8,852 nucleotides of DNA from a virus (taxonomy: Duplodnaviria; Heunggongvirae; Uroviricota; Caudoviricetes), in the IMG/VR virus record IMGVR_UViG_2609459804_000013; one strand, 5' to 3'. The notes beneath the pieces were generated by a model. The model saw only the letters and a list, made by a program, of their open reading frames with translations. It was not told where the DNA came from and did not search any database. Made by a program: the position numbers and the translations under genes. This document shows, one piece after another, positions 1,348-1,737 of the stretch (positions within the stretch are counted from its first letter, which is position 1; every line of letters begins with the position of its first letter).

Positions 1348-1395
1348 TTGATGACCGACAGGGTGGCATTGTTAGAATAAGACTTATTCTTATCT
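1348..1395 (+). promoter_or_regulatory. Putative promoter with an 8-1-8 perfect palindrome (AGAATAAG-A-CTTATTCT, 1374-1390) overlapping a -10-like TAGAAT, immediately upstream of the TonB_C lipoprotein gene
   Basis: TTGATG (1348-1353) as a -35-like hexamer, TAGAAT (1373-1378) as a -10-like hexamer, and a perfect inverted repeat at 1374-1390 ending about 15 nt before the first ATG. The AT-rich dyad containing TTATC is loosely Fur-box-like; this is not established. Confidence 0.3.
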
Positions 1396-1404
1396 GTGCC
1401 GGGA

Positions 1405-1737
1405 ATGAAAATGAAAAGAAATCTTCCGTTAATTATTTTGTTGTCTTCTCTGGTTATGGGCTGTACGCAACATAAAACAGATATGCCCCGACAGTTGGTG
1501 AAGGCATTACCACAATATCCGGCCTATGCAGCGGCAAATTATATAAAGGGACGGGTTGATGTGAAGTTTGATATTGGTGCTGATGGTACTGTCACCCGAA
1601 TTGAGTTTATCCGTTCAGAGCCGCACCATTTGTTTGATGAGCAGGTTGTAAAGGCGATGGCAAAATGGCGATTTGAGAAGGACAGGCCGTGTAAAGGCGT
1701 GAAGAAAACGTTTATCTTTAGTCCTTCTGCACCCTGA
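1405..1737 (+). CDS. Lipoprotein consisting essentially of a TonB C-terminal domain (TonB_C-like), probable moron gene
   Basis: Signal peptide MKMKRNLPLIILLSSLVMGC with a lipobox-like VMGC; the +2 residue is Thr, which suggests outer-membrane sorting. The mature part LPQYPAYAAANYIKGRVDVKFDIGADGTVTRIEFIRSEPHHLFDEQVVKAMAKWRFEKDRP aligns by eye with the E. coli TonB C-terminus ([60 protein letters not shown]). Start could be the GTG at 1396 or ATG at 1405 or 1411. Confidence 0.8.
   Translation: MKMKRNLPLIILLSSLVMGCTQHKTDMPRQLVKALPQYPAYAAANYIKGRVDVKFDIGADGTVTRIEFIRSEPHHLFDEQVVKAMAKWRFEKDRPCKGVKKTFIFSPSAP

Follow-up and report, generated by a model that had tools for sequence, protein, structure and literature searches.

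Two kinds of small phage outer-membrane lipoprotein have been described that act against the TonB-dependent transporter FhuA, i.e. Llp of phage T5 and the Cor proteins of phages phi80, N15, HK022 and T1, and both exclude phages. Llp acts on the transporter from the periplasmic side of the outer membrane, where it jams FhuA (PMC9586334), and its action is described as a reverse allostery on the plug and the surface loops; the Cor proteins functionally inactivate FhuA, and a 2024 review of superinfection exclusion names only Cor for this receptor. The β3 strand of the C-terminal domain (CTD) of TonB pairs in parallel with the Ton box of FhuA, and the isolated CTD binds Ton boxes by β-augmentation (PMC11658791). 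Engineered periplasmic fragments of TonB (residues 33-239, 103-239 and 122-239), in which the periplasmic domain is detached from its energy source, reportedly inhibit the TonB system in a dominant-negative manner (bioRxiv 10.1101/2020.01.05.895219); the inhibition of ferrichrome transport by such fragments was attributed to blocked contacts between TonB and the transporter, and later work suggests that part of the effect may run through contacts between ExbD and TonB. In this paper, we describe a gene in an 8,852-nt stretch of DNA from a virus of the Caudoviricetes (IMG/VR record IMGVR_UViG_2609459804_000013; this whole stretch is called the window below), which encodes a 108-aa predicted lipoprotein with a free-standing TonB C-terminal domain (TonB_C) at 1411..1737 on the + strand, and which may act as a natural decoy of TonB.

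Residues 26-104 of this protein (1486..1722, + strand) form a TonB_C domain that corresponds to residues 153-231 of E. coli TonB. The match to Pfam PF03544 (TonB_C) has an E-value of 1.3e-14 (54.8 bits, cut-off 24.6), that to TIGR01352 scores 54.6 bits (cut-off 27.1), and a phmmer search against the PDB returned the CTD of E. coli TonB (1u07, 2gsk and 2grx) with E-values from 4e-16 to 2e-15. The alignment with TonB is ungapped over 79 residues at 37-39% identity; the PQYPA, VKFD, DG.V and WR.E motifs are all present, and the core of the TonB domain is kept, with F180, G186, F202, W213, Y215 and F230 of TonB aligned to F53, G59, F75, W86, F88 and F103 of the phage protein, respectively. The secondary structure elements are α1 (residues 38-42), β1 (47-55), β2 (61-70), α2 (76-84) and β3 (94-103), followed by a Pro-rich tail, SPSAP. 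In the AlphaFold2 (AF2) model used here, which was built from an alignment of 32 family sequences (an earlier, shallow alignment had given a predicted local distance difference test score, pLDDT, of 65), the pLDDT is 96-98 throughout the domain, and the β3 edge strand (residues 94-103) is modelled intact. Foldseek searches of the PDB with this model found TonB bound to BtuB (2gsk_B; TM-score 0.91, root-mean-square deviation, rmsd, 1.1 Å) and TonB bound to FhuA (2grx_C; TM-score 0.92, rmsd 1.1 Å), and the top 16 matches are all C-terminal domains of TonB or of TonB homologues (FusB, TonB2), while the viral fold library BFVD gave no convincing match to the model. Taken over 1U07, 2GSK and 2GRX, the phage domain and the E. 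coli TonB CTD (residues ~150-239) share the α1-β1-β2-α2-β3 order (TM-scores 0.88-0.92, rmsd 1.1-1.3 Å), the YP motif and the aromatic core, and differ in the tail after β3, which has 5 residues (SPSAP) in the phage protein and 9 in TonB.

The remainder of TonB has no counterpart in the phage protein. There is no N-terminal transmembrane anchor for coupling to ExbB/ExbD in the 108 aa, the alignment beginning at TonB residue 153, and no Pro-rich spacer that would span the periplasm. The equivalog models of full-length TonB (NCBIfam, PRK10819 group) accordingly gave 49-74 bits, all below their cut-offs of 265-448 (the best model, 74 bits against 315), because the anchor and the spacer are absent. 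Instead, the sole hydrophobic segment is a predicted cleavable lipoprotein signal peptide (1411..1464, + strand): the N-terminus, MKRNLPLIILLSSLVMG-C18-T, fits the PROSITE PS51257-type lipoprotein pattern in a pattern test, with a lipobox L-V-M-G-C whose Cys18 is encoded at 1462-1464. The residue at +2 is Thr, for which the established "+2 rule" predicts sorting by the Lol system to the outer membrane, so that the phage protein would be lipid-anchored there, whereas TonB is anchored in the inner membrane. Between the anchor and the domain, residues 19-25 (TQHKTDM; 1465..1485, + strand) are predicted to be a short disordered tether with low pLDDT in the AF2 model, the block means being 52 over residues 11-20 and 82 over residues 21-30.

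The ORF (open reading frame) is intact, and appears in the mechanical ORF list as 1396..1737 (+), with the stop codon at 1735-1737. Besides a GTG at 1396 and an ATG at 1405, it contains a second ATG at 1411, which is the likely start; this is also the start of the RefSeq entry WP_000828068.1 (108 aa, 'TonB family protein'), and a Shine-Dalgarno-like GGGAA lies ahead of it at 1401-1405. A preliminary description of this locus, based on the letters of the DNA, had placed the element at 1348-1737. The coding sequence takes up 1411-1737 (+) of this interval, and 1348-1410 turned out to be non-coding upstream DNA with a promoter-like site. The same description had read the product as a lipoprotein with a VMGC lipobox and Thr at +2, consisting of a free-standing TonB CTD without the N-terminal transmembrane anchor and the Pro-rich spacer, and had named a profile search and a structure prediction as checks able to refute this. 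The pattern match, the Pfam and TIGR01352 scores, the alignment with PDB entries, the AF2 and Foldseek results, the length of the protein and the equivalog scores bear out each of these points far beyond chance, and neither check spoke against them: the TonB_C match is significant and the predicted fold is that of TonB_C.

We tentatively favour the view, held with confidence just short of evenly balanced, that the protein is a TonB decoy, which would confer exclusion or tolerance on the lysogen or on an infected cell. This was also the interpretation of the preliminary description, and it seems a reasonable and plausible one, somewhat strengthened by the present analysis. By analogy with the systems above, the protein would reside in the inner leaflet of the outer membrane, with TonB_C as its only folded part on a tether of roughly 8-15 residues. 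Having no link to ExbB/ExbD, the domain would bind the β-strands of Ton boxes by β-augmentation and deliver no energy. Its targets could be the Ton boxes of FhuA, BtuB, FepA, Cir and other transporters and/or incoming group B colicins, and by competing with TonB on the periplasmic side of the outer membrane the protein would make TonB-dependent entry harder for T1/phi80-type phages and for colicins B, D, Ia and M. Expression would come from the late transcript, the gene lying on the same strand just 3' of Rz/Rz1, and from its own σ70 promoter, probably from both; as a Fur-like operator overlaps this promoter (see below), synthesis may rise together with the iron-regulated receptors that the protein would guard.

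The protein resembles the engineered TonB fragments in that a periplasmic TonB domain is detached from the energy source, but those fragments are soluble, longer and overexpressed laboratory constructs, whereas the phage protein is natural, minimal and lipid-anchored, and is without the regions involved in the ExbD-TonB contacts. It shares with Llp and Cor the nature of a small phage outer-membrane lipoprotein, and with Llp the proposed action from the periplasmic side on a TonB-dependent transporter. Llp and Cor, on the other hand, share a fold of their own, from which the TonB_C protein is set apart by the described fold and by the PHROG scan, which returned families 1267 and 34172 only; their genes occupy positions elsewhere, and they are specific to FhuA, while from a mimic of TonB one would expect an effect on Ton boxes generally.

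By its sequence, the window protein belongs to an Enterobacterales family of ~110-aa lipoproteins. Exhaustive HMMER and profile searches found about 30 short relatives (104-133 aa, 31-49% identity) in Klebsiella, Raoultella, Pantoea, Erwinia, Rahnella, Sodalis and a genome labelled Salmonella; a genome scan with one family alignment (A3) returned 6 loci only, and scans of viral contigs with the queries P0040 and P0046 gave no matches. The lipobox pattern was matched by 29 of the 32 aligned sequences, all 29 being among the 30 short family members; of the three that do not match it, one is a short member with VLNAC as a near-lipobox, and the other two are longer, TonB-like and not members. The +2 residue is Ser, Ala, Thr or Val and never Asp, the distance from the Cys to the P.YP motif is 15-24 residues, and the residues conserved in the family are those of the TonB core, the YP motif included.

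In prophages the gene is always on the strand of the late genes, with the lysis cassette on one side and the terminase genes on the other. This slot is repeated in at least five diverged lineages, among them E. coli clade A (the window allele), clade B (phage 21), and the Klebsiella, Sodalis and Rahnella prophages, and the packaging modules next to the gene differ, with HNH plus an HK97-type terminase in the window, a PHROG-51 TerS in Klebsiella, and lambda-type Nu1/GpA in Sodalis and Rahnella. The position of a moron between the lysis cassette and the packaging genes, as claimed in the preliminary description, is found in the window itself, where Rz/Rz1 lie upstream and HNH, TerS and TerL downstream of the TonB_C gene, which is on the strand of the late operon. 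At the gene the GC content falls to 41-44%, from 55-59% in the flanks; this trough and the promoter-like site upstream of the gene (see below) would fit a moron.

Two side observations concern the surroundings of family members. In a Pantoea-like genome (L052), the chromosomal TonB_C gene lies ~1.7 kb from a gene with a pore-forming colicin domain (PF01024; 2208-3290, - strand) and an integrase fragment. A gene for a DUF1440/YagU-like membrane protein is found near the TonB_C gene both in Klebsiella phage ST13-OXA48phi12.4 (L004, 1277-1903) and on the Raoultella chromosome (L037, 6738-7301; here the assignment is a reading of the ORF sequence), and this shared neighbour hints that the phage captured a chromosomal segment.

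In E. coli, a 701-nt query around the gene has matches in 971 of 5,426 complete genomes, and 414 of them reach at least 80% coverage; most of the phages with a match to the first 63 nt of this query lack the TonB_C gene. The clade A allele of the window is found in phage JLK-2012, Lys8385Vzw and four Stx1a-converting phages, and a second allele, 72% identical (clade B), in phage 21, ev017, Perceval and three PhiR phages; in phage 21 the gene adjoins bor and lies before cos. The dN/dS ratio between the window allele and that of phage 21 is 0.13 at a dS of ~1.4. The gene is under purifying selection, and these values exclude a decaying gene fragment. An attempt to learn the phages' own receptor from the C-terminus of the J protein of JLK-2012 was dropped, since this region is lambda-J-like (52% to lambda), varies among the carriers of the gene and is silent on TonB dependence.

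A second lipoprotein of similar design was found in related prophages. The closest relative of the window examined, the SCU-104 prophage, is 99.9% identical over the 701-nt query and 96% identical over 7.6 kb of the window, the latter being the part covered by the fetched locus. Its late operon encodes a 142-aa lipoprotein with the N-terminal signature LTTG-C20-T, of which residues 54-141 align ungapped with domain III of E. coli TolA (Pfam TolA_C, 5.7e-23; PDB 1s62, 1.6e-25, and 1tol, ~1e-25). This gene (WP_000271631.1) lies outside the window, at 2156641-2157069 of NZ_CP053284.1 (3642-4070 of the fetched locus L054), and a further copy is at 40533-40961 of LR597641.1 (5001-5429 of L055). In SCU-104 it is preceded by Q and the tRNAs, and the TonB_C gene lies 5.8 kb further downstream. 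All of the 15 best genome hits for the window gene also carry the TolA-domain gene, and the two genes are 5.8-6.9 kb apart where coordinates were compared; one genome is an exception, its listed hits being far from each other. Among phage records, tblastn found the TolA-domain lipoprotein in mEp460_ev081 only, where it bears the name 'TolA protein', and on this result the 'tciA' of JLK-2012 was rejected as a TolA-domain gene.

The two lipoproteins are alike in having a lipobox (LTTGC in the TolA-domain protein) with Thr at +2, a free-standing C-terminal domain of a transducer, and a place in the late region of the same prophage. They differ in that the TolA-domain protein carries TolA_C (PF06519), occupies the slot between Q and the lysis genes, is rarer, and is without a clear Fur-like site, the best match to a Fur box upstream of its gene being 12/19. 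As far as can be read from these sequences, the same design, a lipid anchor joined to the free docking domain of a transducer of envelope energy, has arisen in the Ton system and in the Tol system alike. Our confidence in a decoy is raised by this pair, because TolA domain III and the TonB CTD represent the two hubs that are used by colicins and phages, the Ff phages being users of TolA domain III. The fuller proposal that the TonB CTD and TolA domain III work as paired decoys, with the TonB mimic wired into the Fur regulon of the host, and hence made just when a shortage of iron fills the cell surface with TonB-dependent receptors, and the pair giving broad exclusion and colicin tolerance by molecular mimicry, we regard as somewhat unlikely.

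The upstream region of the gene contains a predicted σ70 promoter-like site at 1351..1378 (+), with a -35 element ATGACC at 1351-1356, a 16-nt spacer and an extended -10 element TGtTAGAAT at 1370-1378; it scores 9/12 with the TG in a consensus scan, and phage 21 shares part of its -10 region (TGTCAGAAT). A perfect 8-1-8 palindrome, AGAATAAG-A-CTTATTCT, at 1374-1390 overlaps the -10 hexamer and extends just downstream of it, and the sequence at 1376-1394 matches the Fur-box consensus GATAATGATAATCATTATC at 13 of 19 positions, which ties for the best score in the window; read on the - strand, the Fur-like site is GATAAG AATAAG T CTTATT. The whole element, 1374-1394, is located where the transcription start would be expected. 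For the region upstream of the window gene, shuffling gives a p of ~0.055 for the Fur-consensus score, so that the match is weak when taken by itself. The palindrome was also considered as a conserved operator; this was rejected, as phage 21 does not preserve the right arm, and the palindrome is kept as the local form of the Fur-like site of the family. A strong promoter-like site, TTCACA-16-TATAAT (11/12), points antisense at 1565-1538 (-), within the coding sequence of the TonB_C protein; AT-rich DNA could produce such a match by chance, or the site could give rise to an antisense RNA.

Many other members of the family have Fur-like 19-mers with 14-17 matches located 26-37 nt upstream of the ATG, in prophage and chromosomal lineages. 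The match to the consensus is 17/19 in the Sodalis prophage and in the Pantoea-like locus, 16/19 in P. agglomerans, 15/19 in Raoultella, 14/19 in Pantoea SM3, and 12-14/19 in the Klebsiella prophages; in the fetched loci the sites are at ~5971 (L047), ~4965 (L052), ~6037 (L044), ~5972 (L037) and ~4971 (L050), and at ~-37 from the ATG in L005-L034. In a control set of 276 windows, taken upstream of unrelated ORFs in these loci, 13 or more matches occur in 1.8% (5.6% if AT-rich), 14 or more in 0.7%, and 16 or more never. No Fur-like site was found upstream of the TonB_C genes of phage 21, the Rahnella prophage and three other loci. These matches suggest that the family of TonB_C lipoproteins was ancestrally Fur-regulated, as are tonB and its receptors; the site of E. 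coli clade A appears to be a weaker version of it, and clade B appears to have lost it. The stx1 gene, carried by some of the same phages, is also Fur-regulated.

This pattern leads to the alternative that survives best, in which the protein is a Fur-repressed accessory of iron starvation that binds Ton boxes or the TonB CTD and tunes or buffers the coupling when receptors outnumber TonB, and which prophages picked up as a fitness moron. It would account for the Fur-like sites of the Sodalis, Pantoea, Raoultella and Klebsiella members and of the window, which are rare in the controls, and for the location of several orthologues on the chromosome outside prophages. Yet a domain without a link to ExbBD cannot energise transport, and the sole experimental precedent for a free TonB CTD is inhibition; the repeated placement in the late region of prophages, together with the TolA-domain lipoprotein, is hard to explain by iron physiology, and the site is absent in phage 21 and the Rahnella prophage. 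We therefore consider this explanation rather unlikely, and keep the TonB decoy as the tentatively preferred reading.

Several points weigh against the decoy as well. The orthologues of Pantoea, Raoultella and the genome labelled Salmonella are chromosomal, lying among metabolic genes outside prophages, and therefore the ancestral role need not be anti-phage. Fur-like operators would imply induction in iron starvation, the condition in which a block of TonB-dependent uptake costs most. Residues Q160, R166 and R158 of TonB, which we take to be adjacent to the Ton box or the plug, are not kept, being replaced by L33 (Tyr in clade B), Y39 and K31 (Thr in clade B), respectively. The orientation seen in 2GRX and 2GSK, if placed on a short tether, is an assumed geometry of the model. 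Finally, the TolA-domain gene is not universal, as it occurs in 123 of the 5,426 genomes (at least 80% coverage) against at least 414 for the TonB_C gene.

The slot of the gene raises the question of whether it encodes an envelope or virulence lipoprotein of the Bor/Lom kind, with a peptidoglycan-binding or protein-binding module unrelated to Ton boxes, which would make the envelope more stable or change the properties of the surface. The Bor protein of lambda is likewise the product of a lipoprotein moron between the lysis genes and cos/terminase, bor and the TonB_C gene are neighbours in phage 21, the latter gene occurs in Stx- and effector-carrying prophages, and the TonB CTD has been proposed to contact peptidoglycan. 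Bor, however, is encoded on the opposite strand, has no relationship to the TonB_C protein in sequence or fold, and is linked to serum resistance rather than to the TonB system; the residues conserved in the family are those of the TonB core, and no pointer to a surface-exposed or peptidoglycan-binding role was found here, which makes this explanation improbable.

A lysis accessory or spanin-like protein is less probable still. This is what the label of PHROG 1267, 'Rz-like spanin', would mean, and the family matches the full-length protein with an E-value of 5.7e-43; moreover, all the prophage copies that were examined have the lipoprotein gene just 3' of the lysis cassette and in the same orientation. 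But the Rz/Rz1 pair is already complete in the window, o-spanins are short Pro-rich peptides and not an 80-residue globular TonB fold, and there are no lysis genes near the chromosomal orthologues. The label was rejected on these grounds, and is most likely an annotation error carried over from the neighbouring genes. As for an inert leftover of a captured tonB fragment, which the old label 'partial tonB-like membrane protein' in CP-933N and ev017 and the apparently defective window prophage (TerS and TerL frameshifted relative to its relative) might suggest, it is scarcely credible in view of the dN/dS and dS values given above, the acquisition and conservation of a lipoprotein signal, and an ORF that is intact in hundreds of genomes and in members only 31-49% identical to the window protein.

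The similarity to TonB had been noticed before, as that old label shows, and the novelty implied by the preliminary description does not hold for the gene as such, which already carries an annotation in RefSeq, phage 21 ('TonB C-terminal domain protein') and the PHROGs. A full-text literature search found no functional study of this gene, and PADLOC gave no hit and has no model for the protein. The present analysis adds the proposed function and its context, namely the family, the slot shared by the prophages, the operator that resembles a Fur box and the twin with a TolA domain.

Upstream of the TonB_C gene, the i-spanin Rz (351..845, +; Pfam Phage_lysis 9.2e-50, PHROG 13) forms the boundary, and the o-spanin Rz1 is embedded in it at 586-756 (+; ORF 571-756), with a lipobox VSAC and a Pro-rich mature part. 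A 74-aa ORF with no function assigned follows at 842-1066; a two-gene module of this ORF with the TonB_C gene was considered and rejected, as the 74-aa ORF at the same position in the Rahnella prophage is unrelated. The non-coding DNA 3' of it (~1080-1260) is ~85% identical to phage 21 while its flanks diverge, and belongs to no Rfam family; Rfam and tRNA scans of the region found nothing, and a site scan found no terminator-like site downstream of the TonB_C gene. Downstream are a YlcI/YnfO (DUF3950) protein gene on the opposite strand (1869..2069, -), an HNH endonuclease gene (2111-2476), TerS (2766-3322) and TerL (3319-4979), and after TerL a protease-capsid fusion and then the portal gene. 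The gap that separates the HNH endonuclease gene from TerS contains a perfect 18-bp palindrome, CAGTTAACATGTTAACTG, at 2568-2585, which may have a regulatory role or be related to cos or the terminase.

Several of the packaging and head genes appear broken or are unusually arranged. TerS is split into overlapping ORFs at 2766-3107 and 3059-3322, with a net 7-nt difference from the intact SCU-104 gene within 2975-3046, and TerL is broken by a 1-nt deletion at 4772 into ORFs at 3319-4803 and 4782-4979. These breaks reflect either a defective prophage or errors of assembly; the TonB_C gene is intact. The order of the following genes is unusual, with a 645-aa fusion of prohead protease and major capsid protein (5043-6980) ahead of the portal gene (7192-8556). 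The portal ORF ends at 8556 and matches only positions 1-451 of the 859-position PHROG portal profile; JLK-2012 has two consecutive 'portal' coding sequences split at the same point, and RefSeq labels the SCU-104 copy as frameshifted. A conserved split or a site of recoding may lie behind this.

If the proposed function is true, the protein would be the first natural TonB mimic, and would represent a third distinct way, after Llp and Cor, in which phage lipoproteins act against TonB-dependent transporters, one directed at many receptors and not at FhuA alone. As the gene is present, at 80% coverage of the query or more, in 414 of 5,426 complete E. coli genomes, Stx1a prophages included, it could influence how these bacteria respond to colicins, microcins, therapeutic phages and siderophore-antibiotic conjugates, and how much iron they take up in the course of an infection. 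The TolA-domain twin suggests a general principle, in which lipoproteins of prophages mimic the periplasmic hubs that are parasitised.

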